From Cyanidioschyzon merolae (Eukaryota): a stretch of 64,000 bases of DNA. The stretch is from NCBI GenBank assembly GCA_000091205.1, contig AP006502.2, one strand, 5' to 3'. Shown one piece after another: positions 32,330-64,000 of this stretch. Position numbers and translations under genes: made by a program. The notes under the pieces are model-generated. The model ran no database searches. It was not told the origin of the DNA and worked only from the letters and a program-made list of their open reading frames with translations. Numbering within the stretch: position 1 is the stretch's first letter; the number at the start of each line of letters is the position of its first letter.

Positions 32330-32503
32330 CTGGTTGGGCTGACGCTTGCCATTCGTAGGAATGCCGCGAATTTTCCAAAAGCGCCGTTTCGTCACCTTCT
32401 TCGTCATCGTCAGAGACTGGTTGGACTGACGCTTGCCACTCGTAGGAATACCGCGAATTTTCTAAAAGCGCCGTTTCGTCCCCTTCTTCTTCGCGGGCAC
32501 GTC
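32330..32503. repeat. Tandem duplication of an 87-bp unit inside a 3.7-kb gene-free interval
   Basis: The unit 'ctggttgg(g/a)ctgacgcttgcca(t/c)tcgtaggaat(g/a)ccgcgaatttt(c/t)(c/t)aaaagcgccgtttcgtc' begins at 32330 and again at 32417. Copies are about 90% identical. The minus-strand ORF 32280..32672 translates it as two 29-aa repeats (DETALLENSR.SYEWQAS). Confidence 0.7.
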
Positions 32504-34390: not shown

Positions 34391-34960
34391 ATGAGCGAAC
34401 AACAGCAACAGCAGCAACCACAGCAGCCTCCGTTGCCGTGTGCGACGGGTTGTGGGTTTTACGGTCGCCCCGAGACTCAGAATATGTGCAGTAAGTGCTA
34501 CAGGGACCACAGCCAAAGTTCAGAGTTGAGCAGCAACCGCGCGAGCGGTACGTCCTCGGGATCCGCAGTCCCGACACCTGCCACGCGCGAGGCACCAGAT
34601 TCACCGCGAGATGTACAAGACAACATGTCGGTTTCCGGGGTTGCAGCGCTCACCAGTACACTCGAGTCCCAACCGAAACTCGAAACGGAAACCGGCCCCG
34701 CAGCCGTGTCCGCAGAGGGATGCAAGGCAGAGGTACAGGTAGAGTCACCAAAGCGAGAGCAGAAGGACCACGGCAACTGCTTCAAGTGCAATCGCCGAGT
34801 TGGACTGCTGGGTTTCAAATGCCGATGTGGTTTTACGTTTTGCTCGCTACACCGCTACGCTGAACAACACGACTGCGACTACGACTATCGTGCGCGGGCG
34901 CGTGAACAGCTCGCGAGTGCCAATCCGGTAGTTGCGGCGAGCAAACTGGAAAAAATCTGA
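34391..34960 (+). CDS. A20/AN1 zinc-finger (stress-associated protein family)
   Basis: ATG at 34391 (MSEQQQQQQPQQPP). The A20 finger is CATGCGFYGRPETQNMCSKCY. The C-terminal AN1 finger is CFKCNRRVGLLGFKCRCGFTFCSLHRYAEQHDCDYDY. The ORF track opens 90 nt upstream at a non-ATG. Confidence 0.85.
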   Translation: MSEQQQQQQPQQPPLPCATGCGFYGRPETQNMCSKCYRDHSQSSELSSNRASGTSSGSAVPTPATREAPDSPRDVQDNMSVSGVAALTSTLESQPKLETETGPAAVSAEGCKAEVQVESPKREQKDHGNCFKCNRRVGLLGFKCRCGFTFCSLHRYAEQHDCDYDYRARAREQLASANPVVAASKLEKI

Positions 34961-42609: not shown

Positions 42610-44772
42610 CTAGTTCGTCGGGGGCGCTAGCGTGGCCTCCATCGCAGCCATAGTGGACGCGGTCGCTGGACTCTCCACCGGAGACGCGTCTTGTACATCA
42701 TGTGTGGATCGACTCGCATCCATCGCTCTGGTTGCGGATCCATTGAGTCGCGGGTGCCGCTGTTGGTCGCTACCGGCTGCGGCATGTTGTCCGTTCTGCA
42801 TTCCAGCGGTTTCGAGCGAGCTCGGTATCGGGGATGCGGCGGTAGCTGCGACTGGTGCTGCCCCCGCAGGTCGCAACCATCGCTGCTTCCATTCGAGCAT
42901 CTCCCGATACCATTCCTGGGCACGCGCGTAGTACTCGGGCCCTGCAGCTTGCGCTCGTCTCATGTAAGCGTCAATATCAAAGTGGAAGCTGTAACTTGGT
43001 GGTGTATTGGGCCGCGAACCGAATCCTTTCCAACCCGTTACCTGCTGTTGTGGTTGTTGCTGTTGTAGTTGCTGCTGCTGCTGCTGCTGCTGCACGTGAT
43101 CGAGCCACTCAAGCCATTGACTTGCGGCCTGCCCGCTCGAATGAATGTAGTTTGCAGGCGTGTTCGACGTCAGCGTATACGAAGATCCTAGTGCATGTGG
43201 CGACATGCCGTGAGCAGCATACAATTTCGCAGAGAAAGGCCCAGGCAGCGGACTCCATCCCCAGAGGGCGACATGCTCAGGGCTCGTGGGTCCACGGCTC
43301 GGCATATTCGATGGATACCCGCACGCTGCAGGTACCGCAGCGTCTGTCCGAGGCATGCCCTGAACCGCAGGCAGTGCGCCCGGGGACGGCGGTACTGATC
43401 GGTTTCCCAGTCCACGGACCGGTGAAGGAGGAACAGAGCTTGGTCGCGGGAAGAGCGGCCGCGGATTCAGAACAGACCGCGAAGCGGTGCTCGTCATTCC
43501 CCGTGGAGCACCTGGAGCCGCCGCCAGCCCAGGCCAAGCTGCACGATCCTCCTTGTTTTCTGTGAGCGCTGCATTTGCCGTGCGTGGTCGCTTCGGGCTG
43601 CTGATTTCTCGCAGTTCATGTCCATCGGGTACGCGCATTTCTTGAAACGACGGCATCACGGTGTTCACGTAAGCAGCAGGGTCTTCGGCGTTGGCCACCG
43701 CCAGCCAGGCGCCATCCGCCACAGAATCTGTCCCAGGAAGCGCACACGATGCGTAGCGTAGCGCTTCATTGGTAGAATGGAGTGAAGGCAATCGCTGCGT
43801 CGATCGTGCTATTGCAGCATCGGTCAGGCCCGCAGCTTGCAACTTGTCGGCAGAGGCCGGGCGCACTACTTGGTTCGAATACGGGTTCGGTAGCAACTCG
43901 CGTGGGGTGCGGAGCTCTTCCAGTCGCACGTTGTCCTCGCCGCACCAGACGAACGCTGGCTTCCGGTACTCCGTGTGCGTCTTCCGAATCAGCCCGAGCG
44001 AGGAAAGTATGTTTGCAATGTCATAGAGTCGTCGCACCTTGGTTTTCATGCCCCCATTTAGGGGATTTTCCTCCGCTTCGCGATTGCCGACACTCCCGGA
44101 TAACAAGATCGACGCTGCGTATTCCAGACTGATGGTGTCGCCACCTGCTAGCAGGAACAGTTGCACAAAACGCTGCGAGAGTGCGCCAAGTGATTTCTCC
44201 TTCCGCGACATGCGATGATTCTTCGTCGACGCGACGGATGGTTTGGATAATGCATTGGATGCAAGCAGGCTCTCTGGGCAGGTTGCGTAGCGTTCGACTT
44301 CGCTGGCTTTTGCTGTGGTCGACAAGGGCCCGCTGACCGGATCGTTGGCCAACTCGTCATCATCCCCATTGAGCTGACTCGAGTCTCCAAGGCCGGCAAC
44401 ACCTCCAGCGGATTCTGCCTCTTGTCTGAGGCGCTGGATGCTCTCTTTCAAACGACTTTGGCCTAGCCAAATATACTTGTTTTTGGCCTTTCGTGTCACC
44501 ATTCCGACGCTTTCGAGCACATTCACAATGTCATATATTCGTCTGCGCTCAACACCGAGGCGCGTCGCCGCTTCGTCCAGGCAAATTTCACATGAACTGT
44601 TTCCCCGTGCTTGTTCTAGAACGCCGTAAAGAGAAAGAAAATTCTCACAAAGCAAGCCGAGGGACTTGTCCTTGCGAGAGTATGCATCACCCGACACCAG
44701 CGGCTGCGAGCTTGATCGCGAGGTGCCCGGCTCACCGTAGCCCCTCATCGGTGACGCCCGATACGGGAACAT
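42610..44772 (-). CDS. Atypical E2F transcription factor with two E2F/DP winged-helix DNA-binding domains (E2F7/E2F8/DEL class)
   Basis: ATG at 44772. DBD1 is KSLGLLCENFLSLYG...LDEAATRLGVERRRIYDIVNVLESVGMVTRKAKNKYIWLG. DBD2 is KSLGALSQRFVQLFLL...VRRLYDIANILSSLGLIRKTHTEYRKPAFVWCG. Both carry the RRxYD DNA-contact motif. No DP-dimerisation or marked-box region is recognisable. There is a C-terminal polyQ (QQQQQQQLQQQQPQQQ). Confidence 0.8.
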   Translation of the reverse strand: MFPYRASPMRGYGEPGTSRSSSQPLVSGDAYSRKDKSLGLLCENFLSLYGVLEQARGNSSCEICLDEAATRLGVERRRIYDIVNVLESVGMVTRKAKNKYIWLGQSRLKESIQRLRQEAESAGGVAGLGDSSQLNGDDDELANDPVSGPLSTTAKASEVERYATCPESLLASNALSKPSVASTKNHRMSRKEKSLGALSQRFVQLFLLAGGDTISLEYAASILLSGSVGNREAEENPLNGGMKTKVRRLYDIANILSSLGLIRKTHTEYRKPAFVWCGEDNVRLEELRTPRELLPNPYSNQVVRPASADKLQAAGLTDAAIARSTQRLPSLHSTNEALRYASCALPGTDSVADGAWLAVANAEDPAAYVNTVMPSFQEMRVPDGHELREISSPKRPRTANAALTENKEDRAAWPGLAAAPGAPRGMTSTASRSVLNPRPLFPRPSSVPPSPVRGLGNRSVPPSPGALPAVQGMPRTDAAVPAACGYPSNMPSRGPTSPEHVALWGWSPLPGPFSAKLYAAHGMSPHALGSSYTLTSNTPANYIHSSGQAASQWLEWLDHVQQQQQQQQLQQQQPQQQVTGWKGFGSRPNTPPSYSFHFDIDAYMRRAQAAGPEYYARAQEWYREMLEWKQRWLRPAGAAPVAATAASPIPSSLETAGMQNGQHAAAGSDQQRHPRLNGSATRAMDASRSTHDVQDASPVESPATASTMAAMEATLAPPTN

Positions 44773-45627
44773 CGCTCAGGCTACCAGCACACGGGTAGTG
44801 AGCGAGCCCTTGCTCTATCGGAAACCAAGCCAACAATAACCCGAAAGAATCAAGTTTCCTTGCACACAGCGCTTCTTACGCAAAGTTTCCAGGCCAGCTC
44901 TCGGTTGATCCCGTCACCGACGCTGTACAACAGAAACCCTGTGAAACGACCGATGGGTGAGGCACGCACCTGCACTGCACGGCTGCGAACGCGAACACTC
45001 GTTACGCAACAGAGTGGCGCGCCCCCTTCCAGGCTTGTGTGTCCGCGTTTACACAACCGGGACGGAAGCCGACCACCAGCGGTATCCACGCAAGTCGCAC
45101 CCCGTACGATACAGACACAAGTCGCAGACTGCTCAAGAGGCGACCCAGTAGCGTGCACTCGTTTCCGCACCAGCCCAAGCGTGCACAAGCTACGCTGCGT
45201 GGTACGCTCACCTACGCCACACACAAATAAACACACCTGTACACCAGAAACGATAGCCAACTGAGGTCAGCCTTCTTCGGAAGGAAGCAAGCAAGGACTA
45301 TGCACCCTACCCGAACAGGAGCTGCGCCAACAGCGCAACGAAAAAGGCAGCTGCGCCCAGCAACGACGGCAGTCGAAAGTGCTCAACTCCGAATAGAGCT
45401 AGCCGGGCTATGGCAGTGCGTCTCTAGCGCGCGAATGATTTGGCGCGGAATTGCAACGCCTTGGCGCCGCCGCCGCCGCCGGCGCCTCCGAAGTCCTGCG
45501 GGTGCAGCCAAACAGCAACGCGCTCGAATCGCGACGGCGGCGGTGCGGAGATCCGCCAAGCATTCCAGGGGTTCCTATGGATTGTACAGATGGAGCGACA
45601 AGTGGCAATCCATGGGAACAGGGGCGT

Positions 45628-45905
45628 GGAGACGCGGCTAGCGCTGTTGATCGAGCGTTTGCTATAGTCCGCTTCATACATTATTGTACGTAAATATACA
45701 ATGCATTGCATCCGAGGCTTGGAGACGCGGCTAGCGCGGTTGATCGAGCGTTTGCTATAGTCCGATTCATACATTATTGTACGTAAATATACACTGCATT
45801 GCATCCGAGGCTTGGAGACGCGGCTAGCGCTGTTGATCGAGCGTTTGCTATAGTCCGATTCATACATTATTGTACGTAAATATACACTGCATTGCATCCG
45901 AGGTT
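45628..45905. repeat. 93-bp tandem repeat of about 3 copies with an AT-rich core, in a 3.5-kb gene-free interval
   Basis: The unit 'ggagacgcggctagcgc(t/g)gttgatcgagcgtttgctatagtccg(c/a)ttcatacattattgtacgtaaatataca(a/c)tgcattgcatccgaggcttg' starts at 45628, 45721 and 45814. Copies are more than 95% identical. The ORF 45424..45897(-) is its translation artefact. Confidence 0.9.
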
Positions 45906-51339: not shown

Positions 51340-52446
51340 ATGTTTCTGGCTCCGACAATACACTTCACGCACAGAAAACACCGCATTGGAACCCTCGGGA
51401 ACCGAGTAGTAGCTCGCTACCATCGACCGTGCACCAACGTTCCAAAACCGCGAGCCCGTGTTCCGTCTCTTCAACGCCGGCTCTCAGTTCAAGCGTCGGC
51501 TCTCAGAGTGGGCCACGGCTTTGATCTGCATCGCCTGGAACCTGGACTACCTCTGATTCTCGGTGGTGTGCGTCTCGAGCACGATCGTGGTTGCGCAGCG
51601 CACTCGGACGGCGACGCCGTCTACCACGCTGTTACGGACGCGATTTTGGGTGCCTTGGCACTGCCGGACATTGGCCAGCTTTTCCCGGACACCGACCCCC
51701 AATGGAAAGGGGCAACTTCGGATGTTTTTCTCCGGGCAGCCGGGGCTATGATGCTTCAACAGGGGTACCGCATCGCGAACCTCGACGTTACTGTCATTCT
51801 GGAACGGCCCAAGCTCGCCCCGCACAAAGAACAAATACGCCAGAATATAGCGGGACTTTTGGGGCTTAGTCTCGAACAAGTGAATTTGAAAGCAAAAACA
51901 CACGAAAAAGTAGATAGCATCGGGGAGAATCGCAGCGTCGGCTGTCACGCCATGATCCTACTCGAGCGTCAACCGCTCGGGAACAGTGACGAGCCTTCCA
52001 CGTCCGCATCCGAAAGCTTCGCATCATCAGCAAGCGGTGCTCCCAACGCTGCATCTCCTAATAGTCTGGAATCGGGTGTGTTTGCCGCACTCGCAGCGAC
52101 GCTCTCTCGAGTCCATGAAGTGATCGAGTCACGACGGTCAGCAGACCCGGAGAAATCATGGACAGCGAAGCTCTTCGCGAAAGGACGCCATAAAATCGCC
52201 CAGAAAGTCGGCGAGGAAGCGCTTGAAGTGGCACTAGATGCTGTGCAAAATCGACCTGATCGCGTCGTGGAAGAAAGCGCCGACCTGTTGTACCACCTTT
52301 TGGTACTGTGGGCGGATCTGGGAGTCCATCCCAACCAGATCGCAGCGGAGCTTGAAAAGCGACAAGGCAAAAGCGGTTTACGCGAAAAGCAGCATCGCAA
52401 TGAATACAAGGACACAAAGGAGCAGCATGATTTGGTGCAGCACTAA
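51340..52446 (+). CDS. ispF: Fusion protein in N-to-C order: plastid-type leader, IspF (2-C-methyl-D-erythritol 2,4-cyclodiphosphate synthase), Ser/Ala-rich linker, HisE (phosphoribosyl-ATP pyrophosphohydrolase, MazG/HisE fold)
   Basis: First ATG at 51340 (MFLAPTIHFTHRKHR...SLQRRLSVQASA). The IspF core is LRVGHGFDLHRLEPGLPLILGGVRLEHDRGCAAHSDGDAVYHAVTDAILGALALPDIGQLFPDTDPQWKGATSDVFLRAAG...VTVILERPKLAPHKEQIRQNIAGLLGL...GCHAMILLE. The linker follows. The HisE block is RRSADPEKSWTAKLFAKGRHKIAQKVGEEALEVALDA...DRVVEESADLLYHLLVLWADLGVHPNQIAAELEKRQGKSGLREK. It is one continuous frame with no intervening stop. Confidence 0.85.
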   Translation: MFLAPTIHFTHRKHRIGTLGNRVVARYHRPCTNVPKPRARVPSLQRRLSVQASALRVGHGFDLHRLEPGLPLILGGVRLEHDRGCAAHSDGDAVYHAVTDAILGALALPDIGQLFPDTDPQWKGATSDVFLRAAGAMMLQQGYRIANLDVTVILERPKLAPHKEQIRQNIAGLLGLSLEQVNLKAKTHEKVDSIGENRSVGCHAMILLERQPLGNSDEPSTSASESFASSASGAPNAASPNSLESGVFAALAATLSRVHEVIESRRSADPEKSWTAKLFAKGRHKIAQKVGEEALEVALDAVQNRPDRVVEESADLLYHLLVLWADLGVHPNQIAAELEKRQGKSGLREKQHRNEYKDTKEQHDLVQH

Positions 52447-52709: not shown

Positions 52710-55700
52710 TCATGAACGAAAATAGACACCGAGTGGAAACGATACCGAAGCGTCGTATGCGTACAGGGCATCTGCCCAGCCACGGGGCACTGGTACAAAA
52801 CCTTGGAACAAGTGCGGCTGCCGACACCGTTGCCATGCGTTCGGTGTTGCAGATTCCCCGTAACCCGCTTGTTTGGCATCCGTCCGTCCTATAATCGATG
52901 CAGTGGTGTTGCAGCGCGAGTCTGGCGATGCCTTTGAGCGCTTTTGGACGCGCCAGGGTGCTTCCGGGCACTCCGCTTGTTCCCGGGGGCCGGACTGGTC
53001 TAGTCGGAGCTGGGGCAACCACCAGCGCTCCATCACGACAACTCGGGAGCAGGGCGAACGAGACCTGCAAAGCGCGACATACCACACTGTTTGGAGCCGG
53101 TCTGCAACGGCGTTCGCCACAACTGCGCTCGTCAACGGAATCGTGAGGAGCCGCCAGCCTCTGCTGGTACGTCTCGGAAGCATTTTCAAACGCAGAACAA
53201 GATCGTCGGCGGATGCCGGTACCCAACGCTGGATGAACCAGTAGACTCGCCGCCAGAAGCATCGCCAGCACCTGCTTTCCTTTGTGAGCGTCGCCTGCGC
53301 AGCGGTATCTGCTCGAACTGGATGCTGACGCTGCTTCAGGTTCAGCACACAGGGGCAACGGATTTGCGGCATGACCTGTTCCGGTGCCAGGGCAAGCACA
53401 TGCAGCTTGTCGTAGCCGGGAGGCATCAGCCACAACATGATCACGTCGCTCCACTGGAGCTCATCCAGGACCTGCCACGAGCAACTTGAGCGATTCACGG
53501 AAAACGGACCGTTTGTCGGTAGCCGCAAGTGCCAGAGACGCCGATTCGTGCACAACACAGCCTCGTTCGGCACTGGACGACAACAAAAGCGATACTGCTC
53601 CGACAAAAGTTCCGAGGAGCTCGCCTGATCGAGCATCTGCCACAGTTCGTATCCCAGCACTGCATCTTCGATGTCGTAGCTGTGATCCAGCTTTGTGCTG
53701 GGCATCCGCGGAGGTCTCAACGGAGCGCTCCATTCGGCAACGCTCCACGTCCATGCGGTCTCCCCAGCAGCCGATTCAATCAGATGCCACGCTGCTTGGT
53801 CTAACAGATCCCGAGCTATTGCCAGCACCGTAGCCGTTGCCTGCATCATGAACAGAAGCGGTGTCGCGAGGAGGATGCCCATTCGTTGGCCGGCCGCGGC
53901 ATGCCACCACCACCGCCACCGCCACCGCCGCCGAAGACGCTCCACCTTGGAGCTGCTGGCACGCTCGGCTGGTGACCCAGGCACCACTGCATCCGTTTTC
54001 GAGTACCGCTGCTGGTGCTGGTGCCCATGAGACGCACCTCCGGTACCTGAAACTTGAACGCGACGCTCAAGGAACCGTGCTGCCCCGCTGTTCGCGTCCG
54101 GGATGCTCCGGTTGTGTGCAGCGCCTGGCATGCGCGCTGCAATATCAAGGGCGAGCGTCGCCAGCCCTATATGTTGCCTGAGGGTTCCCGCTGCCAGCGC
54201 TATCATTCGATGGAATGCATCCAGGGAGGCTGCACCTAACCCCGCGCCATACCCCAGCGACAACGCTGCCGCTGCTCCTAAGATACGGTGCCGATGGCGC
54301 TGACGCAACAACGCTCCGAGTTGTCTCGCTATCTGACGAACAAGTCGACTTAAATGGCGCGCATATCGTGCCGGATTCCCTAACCATTCCGCAGAACTGA
54401 TGACTTTCCAAACCTCCCGGTTCAGTTGTTGTTGATAATGGCGCACCAGGTGCTGCACCAGGTCGTCGCTTGTCTCAAAGGTACCGTCGAGGACGAGTTC
54501 GCGTAGCCACAGCGATGCATCCTGAACATTCATGAGCGGTGTAAGCATGAGTGCTGTCAAACGGGGCCACTCGCTTCCGCGGTATTGCAGGAGCGTTCCC
54601 AGGCTCACCAGGTCGGTTCGTACCGATAGAGTGCATGCCAGCGGAGCGCATACAACGTCGTGAAAAGCGAGTCGCAGGGAGCGTTCAGAACGCTGCTGCA
54701 CCTGGGACACACTGGGAACACCTCGTAGCAGCGCCTGCTCCAGGGCGCGTCTCAAAAGCTGACAAGCGTCAGCGCCAGCCCGGTACTGGGCAGCGGAGCT
54801 ACCGAGCGCTTCATTCGCACCAGCGTCATATTGACAGCAACTGCAGTCGCTCTCCCTGCGCGCTGTGCACTGCGTCAACGATTCCCGTAATGAACGCGAC
54901 AACGGCATTGACGATAGCGATGATCGTGACGACGACGTATCCCCAGAGCGACATGTCCAGCAATACCTCGATGCCGGTGCATTGCCGTCACGCAATATCC
55001 GAGCCGCTGCTCCAGCTCGCCTCGAACTGGAGCTCCTTGCCCGCGCTTGCGTCAGTCGCTGAGCACTTGTTGCTGCAACGAGGCCCATGCTTGGTGTCCA
55101 GAAGATCTCCAGCTCTTGATCCTGCTGCTCAGCACCAACAGACGCCATTCGCAATGCATCAGCAGACGTTTCAACGGGGGTCATGGCATCGACTTGTCGC
55201 CGCCAAGCCACGAACCAGTCAACCATTTGAACAACCAGCGATGCATCGATGTCGAGATCGAGTCGTCCACACCGCACCTGTCCCGAGTGGATCCGTAGAA
55301 ACGTATGCGCACCAGTGCTACTAGACTCGAAACGGGTTCGCAGTACACAAGCAGCTTGCTTCGGGGCTCGCCAAGCGCCATCGTCGCTCGTCCACCGCCT
55401 CGAGGCAACCGATGCTGATAACGATGACGCTCCAGGCGCTGACGCTGACCCCTGACAAGCATACGAAACGGGCCTGCGACGGAGCGAGAACCACGAGACA
55501 ACCGCCAGCCGATCTAGCTGCCGGCTCGTGTTGTGATCTGGACGTATCGACGACTTCTTCTTCTTCTTCTTCTTCGAGTGCCGTTCGTGATCCGAAGCGA
55601 GGCTCAGTGCTCGGCTTGTGCGCGAGGCAGCGTCATTCGCTGCGACACTGTGCAGCCTCAGCGGTACACACCAGGCACCTGGTAATGTAGGATGCTGCAG

Positions 55701-58700
55701 AGCCGAACTGTGATCGAGTTGCAGTGCCTCGCAGACAAAAGCGACCTCACCATGGTAGCTCTCATCCAAACTGGCCTTTTGACGCAGCATATCGCTTCCA
55801 TCTTGGGTGCGTTTGACGTGATGCCAACGCGCATCCACGCCTCGTATGCCGAGGTAGACGACTTGTTCGAAAAGTGGCGGCTCTCTTGTCGTTGTCGTCA
55901 TCCGCAGCAGGGAAATGCCCATCTCGGGTACGCAGAGCTCACATGTGAACGCAGAGGCGTGGCGATCGATACCAGCACCAGCGTAGTGCATTGTCGTACT
56001 GGCTGGAAGCGCGTCCAGCGGTGTTTCAGACGGCGAGGTTTCTGTCGAAACATCATGTCGCTCGTCTACAGAGCGCTGCAGCGACGTTGACGCACCACGG
56101 CTTTGACTCGAGCGTCGAGGCACTGCAGGCTGTTCCTGTTGTTGCTCGTTTTCGGCGATGATGAGCGCAAGCGTTGCCTGGCATCGCTGCAGGCGAATCT
56201 GGAACGTGCGGCTTCGAGACGCTGCACCCGGAGCGCCCGCGGAGTTCGCTACACACCAGCGAACACTTTGATTACAGACCAAGTGCACCGCTGTCTGCGA
56301 GGCAACGTGCACGCGACGACGGCGATGACGACGACGACGACAACCGAGCCCCACTAGTTGCCAGAGACGAGTCCGGCATTGTTGCAGACGCGGAATCACG
56401 CGCAGTTGGACCGCTTGTCCCGTTCGTTTTCCGTCATGATATCCCCGGTGCCTGCTACGCCCGTTGGTGCGGTCGCCGCTGACACCGCTGTCGGTTGCAA
56501 CCTGTGTTTCTCCATGTACAGCTGCAACTGAAGCATGCGAATGCAGCTCGGGCTCTAAGCGAAAAGCGCCCACGTATCCAATCCCGTCGATCCAGAGCTC
56601 GAGAATCGGCTCTGCAAGCGGCTCATCCCAGGTGTAGGCGCATTCCGAGAGCGGGTCCAGTGCTTGCAGCGCATCGTCATCGATAACGTCCTGGGTCTGC
56701 TTCATGCAGCAGCCGCTTCGACAGTGCGCCGGTTCAAGGCGTTGAGCGAAACGAATGCGTTCAATCGTCTGATTCCGGATCCGATACGGTACCAGCAACG
56801 GATGCGGCGGCAGAATCGTTACCAGATGCACGGGTGTCACTGGACTGGTACCTGCTGCAGTGTGCACCCGCGGAAACTGACAAGCGCCCGTTGAGGCCTG
56901 GCGAAGACGCAGACACCAGTCGCTACCAGCGGTGACGGGAACACGTCCACTCCAGTACCAGCCGGGAGCAGCAATGCGGATGCGAAGGCATGGCTTGTTC
57001 GTACCAGCTGGCCAGTGCAACGTTGCCATGGCACCAGGCTCGAGGCGAAAGACGCTCCCGTCAGCGAGCAGTCTGTCGATATCGTTGGCGGCTGTTGGCC
57101 GGACGTCGACAAGGTCCAGGTCGCTGCCGGGGCTGTGCGTTCCTGCCCGGGGATTTGCGGCCCCGAATGATAAGCATTCATCGCCGGTATCCTGGTCGAC
57201 AGGCCATACCAGGAGCGTGTAGGCCGGCCACAAGTTCACCAGGCGGTATCGCGGGTACACCACGAGCAGCCGCGAACGCTCGAGCGGATACCCCAGCGGT
57301 TGGACGCAGACGACCGCATCCAACTGACGAGGACGCGGTACATACGCACCGTCGAACGTTGTCGGTGTCGATGAAGACGACGACGGCCAAGTTTCTGCCA
57401 CCGCTGCGGCAGGTGACCAAGCGCTAAAGCGTGGAGCGATAGAACGCGACACTTGAGACAAGCGCGAATGCGGTGTTGTCGCTGCTGCTGCTGCTGGTGC
57501 TGCGGCTAATGATGATGATACAAGCCACGGCCAACGAGCGTCTGTTTCAAGTGGTGTCGATACGCTCGCGTGTCTTGATCGCACTAGTCGCAACGGACTA
57601 GTTTTCACTTCAGGAGTACCAGTAGCAGCAACATGAACAACAGCATCCGCTACCGTCACCGCAGCTTGTGTGGGTGCTCGATCGGCACCGTGTGCAGATG
57701 CAAGGCGTTGCCAGGCGCTAGGCTGCTGCAGCACCGCCGCCGGAGACGCGAGCATCGCACGAGTCCATCTGTGCGGCTTACGCTCACCTGCAACTGCATA
57801 GAGAGAAATCACCAGGGCCTCATGCGCAAGTCTGGTGCCTGCACACCACGCACTCCATTCGGTATGTGCAGTGCGCCACGAGAGTGCGAGCTCTGGAAGC
57901 GACCATGCAGTCCAGGGACACGGGGCGAGTGTGAGCGGCAGCACTTGTCCGCAAACGGGGCCGCCGTTGTGTCCACCACCACGTGCTTGATACGGTAACC
58001 GCCCATAACGAGCGTTCTCGAATGCATCAAAAGCACCAGTCGTATGAGCAGATATTGGACGCGGCGGTGCGCACTCGCGACATGTCAAGGGCATGGAGCT
58101 GCTGCTACTGCTGCTGCTGCTGCTGCTGCAGGGATAGGCAACGCTTTGGATGGGCGTTTGCGGTGCAGCTGTTGCCGTAGCCTGCTCTGCTTGCACAGTC
58201 TCGAGGTCAGACTGGACACCAGGGCGTCCCGTGTCGATCCAGTTTGCCAAATGTCGTCGCAGTTGCGAGCACCAGGAGCGCCTCTCTGCAGGGATTGCCT
58301 GCATCAAGGTCGTCGGCGACGCTGTCCACAGTGAGCACCACAGTTCCGGAACGCACAGGGTTATCTGCCGCAAAGCACGTGGGTGCTCCCATCCAAAGTC
58401 GACTGCAAAACACGTCCCCAGTGGTGACATTGTTTCCGCGGGCTTCCAAGGCCACGGTGCCAGCCACCTGGGCGCATCGTAGACTACCCGTCGACGATAA
58501 TCATCGCACTCGTGTTCGATCGCATCCGCATGAATGGTTGCTGCTTCTGCTGCTGCTGCTTCTGCTGCTTCTGCTGCTGCTGCTGCTGCGTTCGGCTCGT
58601 TTGCTGTTCGATGAGGTGATCGATCCCGAATCGCTAATGACCTGCACACCTGGGAGGAAAGCGCAAGTGCACCACGATCGGATGCTACCACTGCCTCAGT

Positions 58701-61700
58701 CTGAGAGGTTACAAGTTCATCCAGCCAAGGATGAATCGGGAACAAGTCAGTCGACGCTGTGGTAGGCAGCTGAATCCAGACACGTCCAGGCAACAAGAAT
58801 GCCGATGAATCGGATGCTGCTGTTGACGTTGACTTTGACTGGTGTCCTCGATATCGAGGCAGATGCCGCTGGTGGCTGGTGGCGGCTTTTGGGCGTCGCT
58901 GCTGACGCCAGCCTGCCACCTCCTGGACGGTAGCTCGACGAGCGCCTGGCACACCAGCACGGGTGCAGTCTTTCGCGTTGGCATTGGCGGCAGCGGCGGT
59001 ACTGTCGACTTGGAGCTCCTCCAGCAGCGCCATAGGAGGCGGCTCGAACGCCTCCGGCAACGCCAGCGATACCCAGTGTGCTGGTTGCCAGCAGCAGCTC
59101 GTGGGGATGCTCGTATCCTCAGCGCTGTCCGAGGCATTCCGGGCAGGGTGCTGGTGCTGGTGCTGGTGCTGGTGCTGGTCGTGAAGATTCGTTTCGCTTT
59201 CGGGAGCGCCACCTAGTGTCGCTCTTGTTGCCAAACGCTTCCTCGAGGGATCCGTTGGTGCACTTGGTGCTCCAGTCGTTGACGCTACTGCTTTTGCTGC
59301 GGATAGCGCACACTCGAGATCAAACAGTGCATCCATCCGACAGCTGCGATACACTTGACCAGGCCAGAGCAGTGTCGCTCGATCCACGAAAACAGGTTCG
59401 ATCGATGCATTCCGTATTTGCCAGGGTGCATGGAGCGTCACCAACACAAGAGGCACGCTCACCGCCTCGTTACTCGTTGGTACACGACGAATGACCTGGG
59501 CAGTGAGCAGCGCACCCCAGATGGGGTCCGGCTCCGGATTCAGGTGCCTCGCAGAGCGCGTTCGCGGACGACGACTCGGTATCGGAGACGGTGCCAATGG
59601 ACCCAACCAGAGCACTCGGGATTCGTCGTCGCGAACATTCTGGGCAAGGTCCACGAACCAGGACCACAAGTACGAGGCAGGATGCACACTCGCAACTGCA
59701 GATGCATTGCTGACGCCGTGTTCACCGGTTCGGCACACATTCGGAGCAGTCACTTGGGGGCAGGCATCGTGTTCACTGCATTGCACTTGTCGTGGTTGTT
59801 GCGCTTCACACCCGAGCATGGACGGTGCAGGTAACCTGGTGCTGCTTGCATCCACGTCTGGTACCATCGCGTCATCGTCCAGTTCCGTGCAGAGCTGCCA
59901 GACACAGGGTGTTGGTGCAAACAACGAGGCTGCTCGGATATTGGTACGCGAAGCGAAACTCGATGCTCCATTCTGGACGGCTGTTGGATTCGCAGTCGCT
60001 TCGAAACGAGCTATACAGCACGGAGTGTTACGCACGTTCGAAGTGGTGTCATGCGTCCACAGTGACAAGCAGAGTGGCGTCTGATTCTCCCAGTACAGGG
60101 GCGACTCGAAGCGGCAGAGCCACTGGGGATCTGGTGTTGCTGCTGTTTGACCAGTGGCTGTTACCTTTTCAGAAACAACGCTTTTGCGTCGATACAGAAC
60201 AACCACCAGCACCAAACAGGGCCACTGCAAGGCTTGTATCGCCACGAGCTCGAGCGCAGCGTCAGGCGCGACCCAGCTGAGGGCCTCGCTTCGCGATACA
60301 CCTCCAGAGCGATTATCCAATGGTGCATCCAATGATGATGATGATGATGATGATGTCAGAAACCGTCGCCACTCGGAGAGACGCAGCACCTGCGGATTCT
60401 GGTCCAAAGCGTGAACCGCAATGTCTTGATAGAACGATGCTCGGGGAACGTATCGCATCTCGTCGACAGCGAGCGTACCGTACGCGCTCAGGTGCAGCGG
60501 CAAGCCACTAGCATTGACAAGAGCGAGCGTACCACACTGAGGGCGAACTGGTACCACCAGTGCGGCGCGCTCTGGCCTGCCTGCCTGTATTTGCAGCGTT
60601 CGCTCCACAGCAGCAGCGATTCGAGGCGTAATGTTCAAGCACAAGGCGTCGGTGCTGCTCAGGCGCAGCAGTGTCTGGCGGGCGGGCAGCGTAGACGCCT
60701 CGTGTGACCCACAACAGGCATCAGCAGCAATGCCGTTGCTGTTGTCGTTGTCGTTGTCGTTGTCGTTGTTCACAGCAGCTGTCTGTCGTTCTAGTTGCTG
60801 CAATTGCAGTTGCAATCGTGCCGGCTCCAGAACGAGCTCATCAGTGAGGAACGCTCGGCAGGAGCCCTGCACCTGGAGCCAAAGCGCTGTCCATGGAATG
60901 ACATGTTGCAGGACGCGAACTGAGAGGTTATCGATTTGCAGCGACCACTGCAAGCTGCTTGTCGCGTATGCACCAGCGCTAGCACCAGCACCAGCACCAG
61001 CATCGACAGGAATAGAAACAGCTGCTCCGGCAACGTGCATGGTAAGGGTAACAAGGCGGCCGTCGACTTGATACCATCGAGGCTCACTGAGCGCGCAGGG
61101 TGCTTCATCTGACGTCGATAACGACGACAAAGAAGACGATGATGATCCAGAGGAGAACGAGTTGCGGTGCTGGCCGACTGAGGATGATGCACGACGACGC
61201 CACCAATCGTTGTTCCAGTGTATATCCAGTGTCGACCAAGAGAGGCGCTTCTCAACATGCGGATACGCACAGTTTCGAACTAGGCACTGTTGCAGATGAA
61301 GCGCACAGCCACGCAGCCACAACGCGGAAGCCGCGAGTCCCCCAGCTGGAGTCGACAGAGGCCTCGAATCCGCAGCGCGAACATCAAACGCTGAGAAGCG
61401 ATCATCATCATCATCATCATCATCATCATCTGTGCCGTTTTTGTCTGCTTGACTCGATAAAGCGCTGATCGAGTCGTGCTGCCCTGTGCTTGCATCTCGA
61501 TACCTCGTCTGGCAATGGTAGTGCCGGTGATTCATCGGGGGTATTTGCGGCCTGCTTCGCCAGCGTCCCTGCTCATCGATGTAGCTCGCTAGACTGGAAG
61601 CCGTTGCTACCAGTGAGGCCACCACGAGATCACGCGGATACGCCTGTTCGTAGCCGGGGACGCGGTACCACTTGGGACGATCCCAGAATACAGCCTTACC

Positions 61701-64000
61701 GCTGAAGCAGAGCCCGACAACCAGCGTTCGATCAGCGGTACGACGCTCGACATCAATGCTTGCTTCTGATCCAGAGGATGTGCTCGTACTACTACTGTTG
61801 TCGCTACTGTTGTCTTGCGTCTGGTCGTCAAGGTTGAGCGGGATGAGAAGCAGCGAGGGTGCAGCACCTGCCTCGAGGTGCAGTTGCCAGCTGATGGCCC
61901 CCGCTTCATGAGTGATCGCAACATCGCCCTCGCGTGATGACTCCGGGGCGGCAACCGCGTCACTAGAAACCGACTGCTGATGCTGTTGCTGGTGTACCTC
62001 GTTCGTCTCGTCGATGGACGATTTGGAATCGCTCGTGTCGTTCGGATCTTGAACCGTGGGGATGGGCGCTCTTATCTCTGCAGCTGACGCTGTCGAATCA
62101 TCGGTGCCATCTGCTGCACGAAACTCCTGCCAGATGCGCTTCAACAGGGCGAGTTCGAGAAAAACGCGCGCATCTTGGAGTCGAATCTGCACTCGAGCCT
62201 GAGTTGATGCCTCAGTTGCAGCGCTCGTGTCGTTCCAGTACCGGACTCGAAGGCAGGGCAACATCACCAATTCACCCTGAGCACCGAGGTAGTGACTGCG
62301 CTCTGTGCGGAGGCGCACCGCTTGTGCTTGGAACCGAAGCGCTTCAGAGCGTCCACAATACCGATACTGGAGCGTTAACTTGGAGGCAGCGAGATCAGCG
62401 AGAGCCAGTTCATCGATGCTCGCTGGATGATCCTGTTGGTCCAGATACTGACCTGGATTACGCAACGATGACGATGACGGTGCTTGTTCGCCTGGTGTTC
62501 TGCTTGCGGATGCGTCGGTTTTGCTAGTGTGGTGTTGCGGCCACAAGGTGAAGAAGAAACGCTCCAGGTGCAACTGGGTGCTGCCCTGGGGTACGCCCGC
62601 GACTGTGCTGTTTGCGGCTTGTGCATTACGGGCGACGGATGCTCCGCCACCGTCTTCGGTGAACGTCATCGTCATTGCAGGCTCGCTAGCACTCGCACTA
62701 TGTTGCGTCAGGGTATCCCTAGTGCTACGATATTTCGTAGCGTTCGTGCTAGCGCTCGTGCTTGTCATCACTGGAGGTTTGGAGCTCGGCACCTGACACG
62801 TCTCGTATTGCTCCAGCTGATACTGATACACGGCGTCTTCAAGTCGACGGATCCAGTCTAGGACGTCATTCAGGAGCGCAAGGTCGTGGACTGTTCCAAG
62901 CGCGTGCACCGTCGGAACCCGAATGAAGGTTGCGGCTTTGTCGCGCTGCCAACAGAGGACCCAGTCGACTTGATTGGTCAGCGCCTTCTCCTTGTCGTTG
63001 CTCCCAGTGAGACGCCACAACTGCGACTCTTGGATGCGTAGTCGACAGACGCAATCCATGAGATTGGGAGTTTCGATTTCGCCTACCTCGAGGACAAGCG
63101 TTGCTGGTAATGTTGCAGCCTGCATGTGCAACTGAACGTCCTGGATGTGAAGCTCGACGAAGACGACGTACGCATCCTTCTTCGCTGGCGCATGTGGAGG
63201 CAGCTTATCTTCAAGCAACGCTGTTGATGCTGGCTGCTTTGTCGCGGTGCGCGCCTCTTGGTCGACGGGGCACTGCTGTCTTGCTGTCGCTGTTTGCCCT
63301 GAGCAGGGCGCTGTGTGTCCGTCAGCGCTCCCGATGGTATCAACGAGGTCGTGTGTAGAGCGCTGCATGAGCACATCGTACACGTCGAGGTGCAACAGCC
63401 ACTCGAGCTGCAACCACATGGACCAGAGCTGACGACATTTGGCCTCGTCCGCGTGGATACGCACCTTGACGATCTGGAGAGCGCATTTCGACGCAGTCGG
63501 AGCACCAGCATGCGTCGTCTGTTGCCAGTGACAGGTCAGGGCAGCGGGTCGTAGGTCGTAGGAGCGTCCAGCGTCCTCAGTGGATGATGCATTCGCCGTC
63601 CGATGATCAAGAAGCACATCACCGAAACGGAGGAGCGGTTGCGCGGTCTGATTGGTGACTTGACCTCCCTGCACAAAGCACGCGAGGTGTTGGCGGACTG
63701 CCTGGAGCTGCTCCCGATCCAGCGATGATGATGATGATGACAGGAACAACGCGTCTACGTCGTCGCATACGAGGTCGATGGCGAAAAGCGATAAGCGCCA
63801 CGTTTTTTCATCTGCTGGGGTGATCACGGGTGCGTTCGCTGCCTGAGCGGCAGCCTCAGCTCGGCGGATGTGATCCTCGACGAGTGTTTGGAGCCGGAGC
63901 CAGCTGCTCGCCGGTATCGTGGTGCACAAGGGCGCACACCAGGTGATCCAAAGCTGGAGCATTTGCACGATTTGCGCACAGATACCAGACGGGTGCCATT
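52710..64000 (-). CDS. Giant single-exon ORF of more than 3,750 codons, 5'-truncated by the window end. Putative VPS13/chorein-family bridge-like lipid-transfer protein.
   Basis: The frame stays open on the minus strand from the stop at 52710 past base 64000. I checked that 63969-64000 contains no in-frame stop. The track's M at 63968 is a GTG. The C-terminal region contains LVQHLVRHYQQQLNREVWKVISSAEWLGNP..., which resembles the VPS13 C-terminal block (HY..Q...Q..K.LGS.D.LGNP) as I recall it. This is followed by a PH-like tail. The body is a huge low-complexity protein with poly-D, poly-S, poly-K, (HQ)n, (ND)n and poly-A runs. These are encoded by the (ATC)10 run at 61401..61430, the (ATG)8 run at 60330..60353 and the (GCTGGT)6 run at 59141..59180. 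Confidence 0.5.
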   Translation of the reverse strand, partial: WHPSGICAQIVQMLQLWITWCAPLCTTIPASSWLRLQTLVEDHIRRAEAAAQAANAPVITPADEKTWRLSLFAIDLVCDDVDALFLSSSSSSLDREQLQAVRQHLACFVQGGQVTNQTAQPLLRFGDVLLDHRTANASSTEDAGRSYDLRPAALTCHWQQTTHAGAPTASKCALQIVKVRIHADEAKCRQLWSMWLQLEWLLHLDVYDVLMQRSTHDLVDTIGSADGHTAPCSGQTATARQQCPVDQEARTATKQPASTALLEDKLPPHAPAKKDAYVVFVELHIQDVQLHMQAATLPATLVLEVGEIETPNLMDCVCRLRIQESQLWRLTGSNDKEKALTNQVDWVLCWQRDKAATFIRVPTVHALGTVHDLALLNDVLDWIRRLEDAVYQYQLEQYETCQVPSSKPPVMTSTSASTNATKYRSTRDTLTQHSASASEPAMTMTFTEDGGGASVARNAQAANSTVAGVPQGSTQLHLERFFFTLWPQHHTSKTDASASRTPGEQAPSSSSLRNPGQYLDQQDHPASIDELALADLAASKLTLQYRYCGRSEALRFQAQAVRLRTERSHYLGAQGELVMLPCLRVRYWNDTSAATEASTQARVQIRLQDARVFLELALLKRIWQEFRAADGTDDSTASAAEIRAPIPTVQDPNDTSDSKSSIDETNEVHQQQHQQSVSSDAVAAPESSREGDVAITHEAGAISWQLHLEAGAAPSLLLIPLNLDDQTQDNSSDNSSSTSTSSGSEASIDVERRTADRTLVVGLCFSGKAVFWDRPKWYRVPGYEQAYPRDLVVASLVATASSLASYIDEQGRWRSRPQIPPMNHRHYHCQTRYRDASTGQHDSISALSSQADKNGTDDDDDDDDDDRFSAFDVRAADSRPLSTPAGGLAASALWLRGCALHLQQCLVRNCAYPHVEKRLSWSTLDIHWNNDWWRRRASSSVGQHRNSFSSGSSSSSLSSLSTSDEAPCALSEPRWYQVDGRLVTLTMHVAGAAVSIPVDAGAGAGASAGAYATSSLQWSLQIDNLSVRVLQHVIPWTALWLQVQGSCRAFLTDELVLEPARLQLQLQQLERQTAAVNNDNDNDNDNSNGIAADACCGSHEASTLPARQTLLRLSSTDALCLNITPRIAAAVERTLQIQAGRPERAALVVPVRPQCGTLALVNASGLPLHLSAYGTLAVDEMRYVPRASFYQDIAVHALDQNPQVLRLSEWRRFLTSSSSSSSLDAPLDNRSGGVSRSEALSWVAPDAALELVAIQALQWPCLVLVVVLYRRKSVVSEKVTATGQTAATPDPQWLCRFESPLYWENQTPLCLSLWTHDTTSNVRNTPCCIARFEATANPTAVQNGASSFASRTNIRAASLFAPTPCVWQLCTELDDDAMVPDVDASSTRLPAPSMLGCEAQQPRQVQCSEHDACPQVTAPNVCRTGEHGVSNASAVASVHPASYLWSWFVDLAQNVRDDESRVLWLGPLAPSPIPSRRPRTRSARHLNPEPDPIWGALLTAQVIRRVPTSNEAVSVPLVLVTLHAPWQIRNASIEPVFVDRATLLWPGQVYRSCRMDALFDLECALSAAKAVASTTGAPSAPTDPSRKRLATRATLGGAPESETNLHDQHQHQHQHQHPARNASDSAEDTSIPTSCCWQPAHWVSLALPEAFEPPPMALLEELQVDSTAAAANANAKDCTRAGVPGARRATVQEVAGWRQQRRPKAATSHQRHLPRYRGHQSKSTSTAASDSSAFLLPGRVWIQLPTTASTDLFPIHPWLDELVTSQTEAVVASDRGALALSSQVCRSLAIRDRSPHRTANEPNAAAAAAEAAEAAAAEAATIHADAIEHECDDYRRRVVYDAPRWLAPWPWKPAETMSPLGTCFAVDFGWEHPRALRQITLCVPELWCSLWTASPTTLMQAIPAERRSWCSQLRRHLANWIDTGRPGVQSDLETVQAEQATATAAPQTPIQSVAYPCSSSSSSSSSSSMPLTCRECAPPRPISAHTTGAFDAFENARYGRLPYQARGGGHNGGPVCGQVLPLTLAPCPWTAWSLPELALSWRTAHTEWSAWCAGTRLAHEALVISLYAVAGERKPHRWTRAMLASPAAVLQQPSAWQRLASAHGADRAPTQAAVTVADAVVHVAATGTPEVKTSPLRLVRSRHASVSTPLETDARWPWLVSSSLAAAPAAAAATTPHSRLSQVSRSIAPRFSAWSPAAAVAETWPSSSSSTPTTFDGAYVPRPRQLDAVVCVQPLGYPLERSRLLVVYPRYRLVNLWPAYTLLVWPVDQDTGDECLSFGAANPRAGTHSPGSDLDLVDVRPTAANDIDRLLADGSVFRLEPGAMATLHWPAGTNKPCLRIRIAAPGWYWSGRVPVTAGSDWCLRLRQASTGACQFPRVHTAAGTSPVTPVHLVTILPPHPLLVPYRIRNQTIERIRFAQRLEPAHCRSGCCMKQTQDVIDDDALQALDPLSECAYTWDEPLAEPILELWIDGIGYVGAFRLEPELHSHASVAAVHGETQVATDSGVSGDRTNGRSRHRGYHDGKRTGQAVQLRVIPRLQQCRTRLWQLVGLGCRRRRHRRRRVHVASQTAVHLVCNQSVRWCVANSAGAPGAASRSRTFQIRLQRCQATLALIIAENEQQQEQPAVPRRSSQSRGASTSLQRSVDERHDVSTETSPSETPLDALPASTTMHYAGAGIDRHASAFTCELCVPEMGISLLRMTTTTREPPLFEQVVYLGIRGVDARWHHVKRTQDGSDMLRQKASLDESYHGEVAFVCEALQLDHSSALQHPTLPGAWCVPLRLHSVAANDAASRTSRALSLASDHERHSKKKKKKKSSIRPDHNTSRQLDRLAVVSWFSLRRRPVSYACQGSASAPGASSLSASVASRRWTSDDGAWRAPKQAACVLRTRFESSSTGAHTFLRIHSGQVRCGRLDLDIDASLVVQMVDWFVAWRRQVDAMTPVETSADALRMASVGAEQQDQELEIFWTPSMGLVAATSAQRLTQARARSSSSRRAGAAARILRDGNAPASRYCWTCRSGDTSSSRSSLSSMPLSRSLRESLTQCTARRESDCSCCQYDAGANEALGSSAAQYRAGADACQLLRRALEQALLRGVPSVSQVQQRSERSLRLAFHDVVCAPLACTLSVRTDLVSLGTLLQYRGSEWPRLTALMLTPLMNVQDASLWLRELVLDGTFETSDDLVQHLVRHYQQQLNREVWKVISSAEWLGNPARYARHLSRLVRQIARQLGALLRQRHRHRILGAAAALSLGYGAGLGAASLDAFHRMIALAAGTLRQHIGLATLALDIAARMPGAAHNRSIPDANSGAARFLERRVQVSGTGGASHGHQHQQRYSKTDAVVPGSPAERASSSKVERLRRRWRWRWWWHAAAGQRMGILLATPLLFMMQATATVLAIARDLLDQAAWHLIESAAGETAWTWSVAEWSAPLRPPRMPSTKLDHSYDIEDAVLGYELWQMLDQASSSELLSEQYRFCCRPVPNEAVLCTNRRLWHLRLPTNGPFSVNRSSCSWQVLDELQWSDVIMLWLMPPGYDKLHVLALAPEQVMPQIRCPCVLNLKQRQHPVRADTAAQATLTKESRCWRCFWRRVYWFIQRWVPASADDLVLRLKMLPRRTSRGWRLLTIPLTSAVVANAVADRLQTVWYVALCRSRSPCSRVVVMERWWLPQLRLDQSGPREQAECPEAPWRVQKRSKASPDSRCNTTASIIGRTDAKQAGYGESATPNAWQRCRQPHLFQGFVPVPRGWADALYAYDASVSFPLGVYFRS

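Follow-up and report, generated by a model that had tools for sequence, protein, structure and literature searches.

The last 11 kb of a 64,000-nt stretch of Cyanidioschyzon merolae DNA (contig AP006502.2, assembly GCA_000091205.1; the whole stretch is called the window below) are occupied by one minus-strand open reading frame (ORF) that runs off the end and is crowded with codon microsatellites. Such a frame raises the question of whether it is a single functional gene, to which protein family its product belongs, and how its load of repeats is to be explained. The reading that best accounts for the data, to which we assign a probability of about 0.87, is that the frame belongs to CMT436C, a single-exon nuclear gene of 4,704 codons encoding a highly divergent bridge-like lipid-transfer protein of the VPS13 family, whose repeats fit near-neutral slippage. 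Of the defining features of the VPS13 family, those found here are a chorein-type N-terminus, a VAB domain and an ATG_C block, together with the size or order of the landmarks.

The open frame is part of CMT436C

A six-frame scan of the window gave 3,762 open codons on the minus strand at 52713-63998. The stop codon occupied 52710-52712, the frame continued past the end of the window, and the second-longest open frame had 872 codons. A first-pass annotation, which had proposed an uninterrupted VPS13-like ORF of more than 11.3 kb running off the window without naming its strand, is borne out on the frame; its coordinates were right except that its start, 52710, is that of the stop codon, and its count of at least 3,752 codons was ten short. 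The translated frame is an exact substring (residues 943-4704) of the 4,704-aa protein CMT436C of C. merolae 10D (BAM83374.1; XP_005539410.1; UniProt M1VCV0), which carries the name "hypothetical protein" at NCBI and "Vacuolar protein sorting-associated protein" in UniRef. By the open frame and the exact match to BAM83374.1, the in-window part of the gene (52713..63998, minus strand) comprises codons 943-4704 of 4,704, and the residue numbers given below as ORF aa refer to this part. The whole frame is 14.1 kb long, and codons 1-942 (2.8 kb), which lie beyond window position 64000, were read from the 10D protein record and from a 99.6%-identical contig (L001).

The single exon had been called exceptional, a judgement that does not stand: 27 introns, in 26 of 4,775 nuclear genes, are known in C. 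merolae (PMC8831791), so that intronless genes are the rule and a single exon is expected, and VPS13 proteins are routinely 3,000-5,000 aa long. The VPS13s that matched a segment of this ORF had lengths of 3,155-5,135 aa. A search for overlapping or antisense genes inside CMT436C returned only three alternative-frame ORFs of 155-229 aa, and neither a tRNA nor an Rfam RNA was found within the region.

CMT436C is one intact, conserved gene

A frame of this length might be no functional gene at all, but a decaying pseudogene, a fusion of neighbours, or an annotation or assembly artefact that stays open by chance in GC-rich DNA. This would suit the observation that no family can be recognised over most of the frame, as well as the ratio of non-synonymous to synonymous polymorphism per site (pN/pS) between 10D and an ENA isolate, which is 0.67 (16 synonymous and 32 non-synonymous among 48 differences); with only 48 differences, the within-species constraint on CMT436C is either weak or too thinly sampled to interpret. 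It would also suit the literature that was searched, in which CMT436C was unmentioned and no transcript evidence for it was found; CMT436C was also absent from one file of the Iso-Seq paper. The papers searched did not link C. merolae to VPS13 function.

The comparison of assemblies argues strongly in the other direction. CMT436C was intact in three independent metagenome assemblies, where it encodes proteins of 4,687, 4,691 and 4,694 aa, so that the 14.1-kb frame is open in four independent assemblies and the stops on resequencing that the first-pass annotation had looked to as a counter-test did not appear. One of these assemblies, the 70-kb ENA contig L001, was 99.57% identical to the window at the DNA level over 11,243 bp, with 48 substitutions and 8 indels, and all eight indels were multiples of three. 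Among the four full-length C. merolae-type proteins there were 59 substituted columns and 9 indel blocks.

Furthermore, when ORF aa 2240-3439 served as the query, an exhaustive HMMER search retrieved, together with the 99%-identical 4,687-aa version, a 37%-identical orthologue of 4,441 aa, which is encoded by a 13.3-kb gene (L002, 337-13662; Logan SRR17356570). Over the full length, this orthologue is 31% identical to CMT436C and collinear with it from Met1 to the last residues, and blocks of 40-60% identity are scattered along the entire alignment. The protein collection also contained a fragment relative of CMT436C at 53% identity, and a 350-aa fragment relative of the orthologue came from Cyanidiococcus yangmingshanensis. 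A word-indexed protein search had returned no match for the C-terminal 1,523 aa or for a 181-aa block although relatives are in the collection; this blank reflects a limit of the index for very long proteins and not an absence of relatives, since the exhaustive search found them. IspF is the convergent downstream neighbour of the gene in all three loci (the window, L001 and L002).

The three intact metagenome copies and the 31%-identical collinear orthologue indicate that the frame is no assembly accident, and collinearity with such a relative from Met1 to the last 20 residues would be impossible without selection. A frame open by chance is also at odds with the 872 codons of the next longest ORF in the window, with indels that are all multiples of three, and with the VPS13 landmarks described below, which stand in canonical order at both ends and in the middle of the protein. 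Hence a non-functional frame has, in our estimation, a minute probability, and we conclude that CMT436C is one intact, conserved gene.

VPS13 landmarks stand in canonical order

When 1.84 billion representative proteins were searched with ORF aa 2240-3439, 56 matches were obtained. The gene itself and its orthologue aside, nearly all of these align only at ORF aa ~2311-2495 and/or ~3150-3300, and three that were scanned with Pfam were canonical VPS13s with VPS13_N, VAB, VPS13_M and VPS13_C. The two recognisable islands, ORF aa 2240-2491 and ~3150-3300, lie ~1,270-1,520 and 460-610 residues from the C-terminus, so that the first-pass annotation was mistaken in its view that only the C-terminal ~250 aa resemble a known family.

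The best-supported VPS13-specific domain is formed by VAB repeats 5-6 (ORF aa 2240-2491; 56526..57281, minus strand), which are backed by Pfam, by a custom profile and by phmmer. The Pfam family VPS13_VAB (PF25036), whose cut-off is 22.6 bits, reached 22.7 bits when the entire ORF was scanned and 28.9 bits (E=5.5e-7) with the isolated repeat 5-6 segment; it scored 28.5 bits in the orthologue. A custom profile built from 21 VPS13 VAB segments scored 94 bits on repeats 5-6, and ~45 phmmer matches to proteins fell in this region, those checked being true VPS13s. These results point clearly to VAB repeats 5-6 in the predicted protein. In a search of the PDB, the VAB profile matched only cupin/oxalate-decarboxylase chains through an "EPGAM..LHW" string, and these matches were rejected as spurious.

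Six cores with the VAB-type pattern hydrophobic-x-x-I/V/L-x-N can be read in this part of the protein, and all six are kept in the 31%-identical orthologue. Repeats 5 and 6, whose cores are PRYRLVNLW (ORF aa 2248; 57219-57257) and PYRIRNQT (ORF aa 2403; 56754-56792), have statistical support, whereas repeats 1-4 are proposed from conserved motif cores: LALVNAS (ORF aa 1158; 60489-60527), PLYWENQT (ORF aa 1299; 60066-60104), PWQIRNAS (ORF aa 1524; 59391-59429) and VPELWCSLW (ORF aa 1882; 58317-58355), the last of which has Ser for the expected Asn. All of these are on the minus strand. Because the cores are 141-366 aa apart, the proposed expanded VAB region (ORF aa ~1150-2495; 56514..60551, minus strand) would span ~1,350 aa, which is roughly twice the 570 positions of the Pfam model, and the inserts between the cores hold (HQ)n, poly-A/E and S11 tracts.

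Downstream of the VAB repeats, a conserved block with the motif RHYQQQL...SAEWLGNP (ORF aa ~3149-3299; 54102..54554, minus strand) opens the ATG_C region at the end of the predicted groove. Run against the PDB, a profile built from the last 1,200 aa matched human VPS13A (9yg5_B, E=4e-4) at this RHY..Q...LGNP block, where the single C-terminal sequence without a profile reached VPS13A at E=0.07. The phmmer matches of the block, at 1e-8 to 1e-12, fell at the equivalent position in ~35 VPS13s, ~310-330 aa before their C-termini. An ATG_C-type region thus follows the presumed last groove repeat, as it does in VPS13.

At the other end of the protein, the first-pass annotation had expected any chorein domain to lie beyond the window, and this prediction has held. 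An N-terminal profile made from C. merolae and the orthologue was run against the whole PDB at E<=10 and returned two chains, both VPS13: Chaetomium Vps13 (6cbc_A, E=5.3e-4, 22.5 bits, residues 1-92 aligned to 1-87) and 9yrm_B (E=3.7e-3). With hhalign, residues 1-147 of the full-length protein (P0099) aligned to residues 1-125 of canonical VPS13 (E=1e-4, probability 56%). We therefore place a chorein-type N-terminus at P0099 aa 1-~95, starting at Met1, with modest support.

The order of the landmarks was then read from profile-profile alignments. Against 11 canonical VPS13s, hhalign joined P0099 3178-4495 to residues 2448-3311 of one of them (P0051) over 814 columns (probability 99.8%, E=2e-27). 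This alignment starts at VAB repeat 5, crosses the ATG_C region and enters the part of P0051 that is VPS13_C according to Pfam. When six VPS13 subsets were compared one by one, the anchors at VAB and at ATG_C were recovered in 6/6, always in the same order, and the N-terminal anchor at residue 1 was recovered in 3/6. The N-terminus, VAB repeats 5-6 and the ATG_C block stand in the canonical VPS13 order, and together they support the proposal that the gene is VPS13-like.

The region beyond the ATG_C block is less well defined. It comprises 538 residues in CMT436C, against ~310-330 in canonical VPS13s, and it probably contains a PH-like domain (ORF aa ~3426-3645; 53064..53723, minus strand), to which the hhalign alignment through the VPS13_C stretch of P0051 and weak AlphaFold2/Foldseek results point. 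AlphaFold2 predicted strands followed by a helix here at a low-confidence predicted local distance difference test (pLDDT) of 50-64, and the top Foldseek matches were PH domains, though weak at E>=0.18. Averaged over each modelled stretch, the pLDDT was 28 with a two-sequence alignment and 44 with a 13-sequence alignment, the latter with islands of 60-80, among them strands of 20-25 residues and the helices of ATG_C. From the PH-like region to the C-terminus runs a tail of ~118 aa that is poorly conserved, and the ~100 aa before its end are barely conserved between C. merolae and the orthologue; its last 23 codons (52713..52781, minus strand) encode the motif GWADALYAYDAS..FP.GVY, which is invariant between the two. 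No such motif was seen by eye in canonical VPS13 C-termini, and it might serve as a short linear motif for interactions.

Weighing the family assignment

Several points weigh against the assignment of CMT436C to VPS13, in addition to the pN/pS value and the silence of the literature on transcripts given above. The Pfam models VPS13_N/Chorein_N, VPS13_M, ATG_C and VPS13_C were unmatched in CMT436C even when E-values of up to 1-10 were allowed, and Pfam scans of three isolated segments, namely the N-terminus, the block at the start of ATG_C and the final 363 aa, gave nothing. Of the Pfam family models, VPS13_VAB alone passed its cut-off. The match at the N-terminus is modest, with 22.5 bits and an hhalign probability of 56%, the ~3,000 residues that separate this end from VAB repeat 5 had no significant similarity to VPS13 in any of the six subsets, and the VAB profile search of the PDB gave no VPS13 structure. 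Finally, both the custom profile and the hhalign comparison drew on canonical VPS13s that had been picked from matches to CMT436C, and therefore the E-values at the VAB and ATG_C islands are inflated; the N-terminal and PDB results are independent of this choice.

A competing assignment is to another RBG family, namely ATG2, BLTP1/Csf1, BLTP2/Hobbit or BLTP3/SHIP164. ATG2 in particular resembles CMT436C in its chorein N-terminus, its ATG_C region and its groove-based lipid transfer, the last being a property that CMT436C would share by analogy. However, ATG2 proteins have no VAB domain and measure ~1,600-2,300 aa, whereas CMT436C has a VAB domain, which the other RBG families lack as well, and 4,704 aa, and no ATG2 structure was matched in the PDB sequence searches with the N- and C-terminal profiles. 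We consider it very unlikely that the protein belongs to one of these families and not to VPS13.

Codon microsatellites vary by whole codons

An array was counted if it was perfect and comprised at least 5 copies of a trinucleotide or at least 3 of a hexanucleotide. The ORF carries 12 such arrays (8 trinucleotide and 4 hexanucleotide; 1.06/kb), against 4 in the remaining 52.7 kb of the window (0.08/kb), a ~13-fold higher density, and the load is beyond chance because 500 codon shuffles of the ORF gave a mean array count of ~0. The amino-acid runs include D10, S11, K7, S7, S6 and an A/E tract, and the first-pass annotation was correct that such runs are encoded by perfect tri- and hexanucleotide repeats; all the runs it listed (D10, S11, K7, A/E, HQ, ND) are present, with (HQ) at ~5 and (ND) at ~4 units instead of 6. 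Its description of the remainder of the protein as low-complexity was an overstatement, since by a SEG-like measure just 15.6% of the ORF is of this kind (9.6% pooled over 12 neighbouring ORFs) and the rest aligns collinearly with the orthologue. Most of the ORF is divergent yet conserved.

The prediction that repeat lengths would be polymorphic between strains was confirmed: all nine protein indel blocks among the four isolates coincide with codon microsatellites, and all eight DNA indels between the window and L001 are at repeats. All nine loci were delimited by the repeat scan and the isolate comparison, and all are on the minus strand. Simple serine and aspartate runs account for four loci: (TCA)n at 63724..63740 (S6, with S6/S7/S8/S9 among the isolates), (GAT)10 at 61401..61430 (D10, with D10/D8/D5ND2), (TCA)8 at 60332..60355 (S7, with S6/S7/S8) and (AGC)n at 58098..58129 (S11, with S11/S10/S9). 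The hexanucleotide loci are (GACAAC)n at 60741..60769, which encodes (ND)n and varies over 2-5 units; (CACCAG)n at 59147..59179, which encodes (HQ)n and has one unit more in 10D than in the other three isolates; and (CGGTGG)n at 53903..53933, which encodes (RW)n and has one unit less in two isolates. The A/E tract, a (GCA)n array with a GAA interruption at 58539..58589, is longer by 27 bp (9 codons) in 10D, and (AAG)7 at 55554..55575 (K7) with its adjoining (TCG)n reads K7SS/K7SSS/K8SS.

The repeat tracts lie opposite gaps or unconserved residues in the orthologue alignment, and perfect arrays of either kind, counted at unchanged thresholds, number zero in the orthologous gene against 12 in C. 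merolae, so that the microsatellite load is specific to the C. merolae lineage; the GC content is similar, at 55.8% in the orthologous gene and 58.6% in C. merolae. Codons 1-942 of CMT436C carry no arrays. Elsewhere in the window, the E2F gene (42613-44772, minus strand) has a (CAG)8 poly-Q at 43070-43093 whose length ranges over Q7-Q10 among isolates, which indicates that coding-microsatellite polymorphism is general in C. merolae. The environmental versions of E2F begin 8 codons after the start annotated in 10D.

Length variation of this kind might be selected, the repeats acting as "tuning knobs" that set the length or charge of loops in the VAB domain or the groove and thereby alter adaptor binding or tethering between populations. 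The ~13-fold density would be in keeping with this, as would the facts that all repeats are in frame, that several tracts are charged (D10, K7, R4HR4, RW), that 4/9 variable repeats ((HQ)n, A/E, S11 and S7) fall between the proposed VAB cores, and that none occurs in the first 942 codons. Frame preservation, however, does not discriminate, because purifying selection against frameshifts would leave exactly such indels. In addition, the repeats occupy gaps or unconserved positions of the orthologue, the orthologous gene lacks them and is still conserved end to end, and E2F varies likewise. Slippage therefore suffices to explain the repeats, given the tolerant loops of a very long gene and the parallel in E2F, and we regard selected repeats as unlikely, though less so than the two alternatives discussed above; none of the three is favoured. 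Near-neutral slippage fits the data because the changes are of whole codons, the orthologue has no repeats, and the poly-Q of E2F behaves alike.

CMT436C compared with known bridge proteins

With the VPS13 family (yeast Vps13, human VPS13A-D and plant VPS13M/S/X/Y), CMT436C would share the chorein-type N-terminus at Met1, VAB repeats with a P-x-x-I/V-x-N core, the HY..Q...LGNP block before the ATG_C helices, a PH-like C-terminal region (probable here) and the order of these landmarks, and its size is within the family range. It differs from the family in being so divergent that one Pfam family model alone passes its threshold, and in its middle 3,000 aa, which cannot be aligned to any VPS13. 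The proposed VAB region of ~1,350 aa, against ~570-700 in the family, has large low-complexity inserts and Ser for Asn in repeat 4, and ~200 extra residues follow the ATG_C block, ending in the conserved GWADALYAYDAS motif.

In the main text of Leterme et al. (2023; PMC10683392), which does not name C. merolae, rhodophyte VPS13s are described as highly diverged and as forming their own clades, and VPS13R is defined by a beta-sandwich, sometimes with a UBA domain, after the PH domain. CMT436C resembles the "orphan" and VPS13R rhodophyte proteins described there in being red-algal and in not grouping by sequence with the opisthokont or green-lineage paralogues. Unlike VPS13R, its tail after the PH-like region is only ~118 aa long and conserved only at the last 20 residues, so that a beta-sandwich of the VPS13R type is unlikely in it.

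If CMT436C works as its family does, the protein would form a long rod whose repeating beta-groove would serve as a hydrophobic channel. Its N-terminal end would dock onto the donor membrane, usually the endoplasmic reticulum, and its other end would be held on the acceptor organelle by the ATG_C helices, the PH-like domain and the VAB domain, to the last of which organelle-specific adaptors would bind; phospholipids would then flow in bulk from the donor to the acceptor membrane at the contact site. Both the lipid groove and the PH domain are assigned here by analogy with the family. The extra length over canonical VPS13s would largely consist of lineage-specific loop insertions, especially between VAB repeats, and the microsatellites would be slippage-prone sequence tolerated in surface loops. 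They resemble other eukaryotic coding microsatellites (poly-Q, poly-S, poly-D) in being perfect arrays that vary by whole units in unconserved, probably disordered segments, and differ from the typical ones only in their number per gene (12 arrays, 9 variable among four isolates).

Neighbouring genes

The neighbours of CMT436C in the window are eukaryotic, intronless and partly plastid-targeted: MDHAR, a TPR/HAT protein, carbonic anhydrase, FabD, GrpE, NOP9, RuvBL2, Sas10, E2F, mitochondrial ATP synthase alpha and IspF. Four neighbouring proteins are identical to C. merolae 10D BAM83367, BAM83371, BAM83372 and BAM83373, whose genes lie on a 1.62-Mb chromosome. The IspF gene (51340-52443, plus strand) encodes a 368-aa protein in which IspF (YgbB, the MEcPP synthase in the MEP pathway of the plastid) is fused to a PRA-PH domain (HisE-like pyrophosphohydrolase) at its C-terminus, and the fusion is kept in L001 (17340-18446) and in the orthologous locus L002 (13918-15039). 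In the gene-poor segment at 30.7-37.6 kb, a 189-aa ORF (34391-34957, plus strand) starts with MSEQQQQQQPQQPP and continues with C-x2-GCGF-x-G-x7-CSKC, a pattern that, judged by eye, resembles the A20-type zinc finger of a stress-associated protein; a (CAACAG)n array at 34398-34425 encodes its poly-Q. Three minisatellites lie outside the large ORFs, at 1583-1863 (90 bp x 3.1), 32325-32489 (87 bp x 1.9) and 45623-45903 (93 bp x 3.0), with copies 92-97% identical and units that are mutually unrelated.

Significance

Public databases already list the gene with its coordinates and a VPS-type name, and in this respect the finding is an ordinary one. What is added here is a domain map for a protein that NCBI lists as hypothetical and evidence that it is encoded by one intact, conserved gene. 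The nine in-frame microsatellite loci, which lie within 10 kb and vary among four near-identical isolates, are possible markers for strain typing in C. merolae.

The cell of C. merolae has a single mitochondrion, a single plastid and a single peroxisome, and this alga is routinely modified by homologous recombination. Because the organelles are single-copy and recombination is routine, tagging or deletion of CMT436C would be a clean way of testing what VPS13 does in a minimal eukaryote, which is an opportunity and not a discovery. C. merolae has been reported to lack the core autophagy genes. A bolder proposal, which we hold tentatively and think rather doubtful, is that the two cyanidialean orthologues share a form of VPS13 with a VAB region of about twice the usual size, one repeat lacking its Asn, and the new GWADALYAYDAS..FP.GVY motif, and that this protein is perhaps the main or only VPS13/ATG2-type bridge of the cell. 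If this were true, CMT436C would offer a minimal system in which to determine which pairs of organelles a single bridge serves, including the supply of the plastid.

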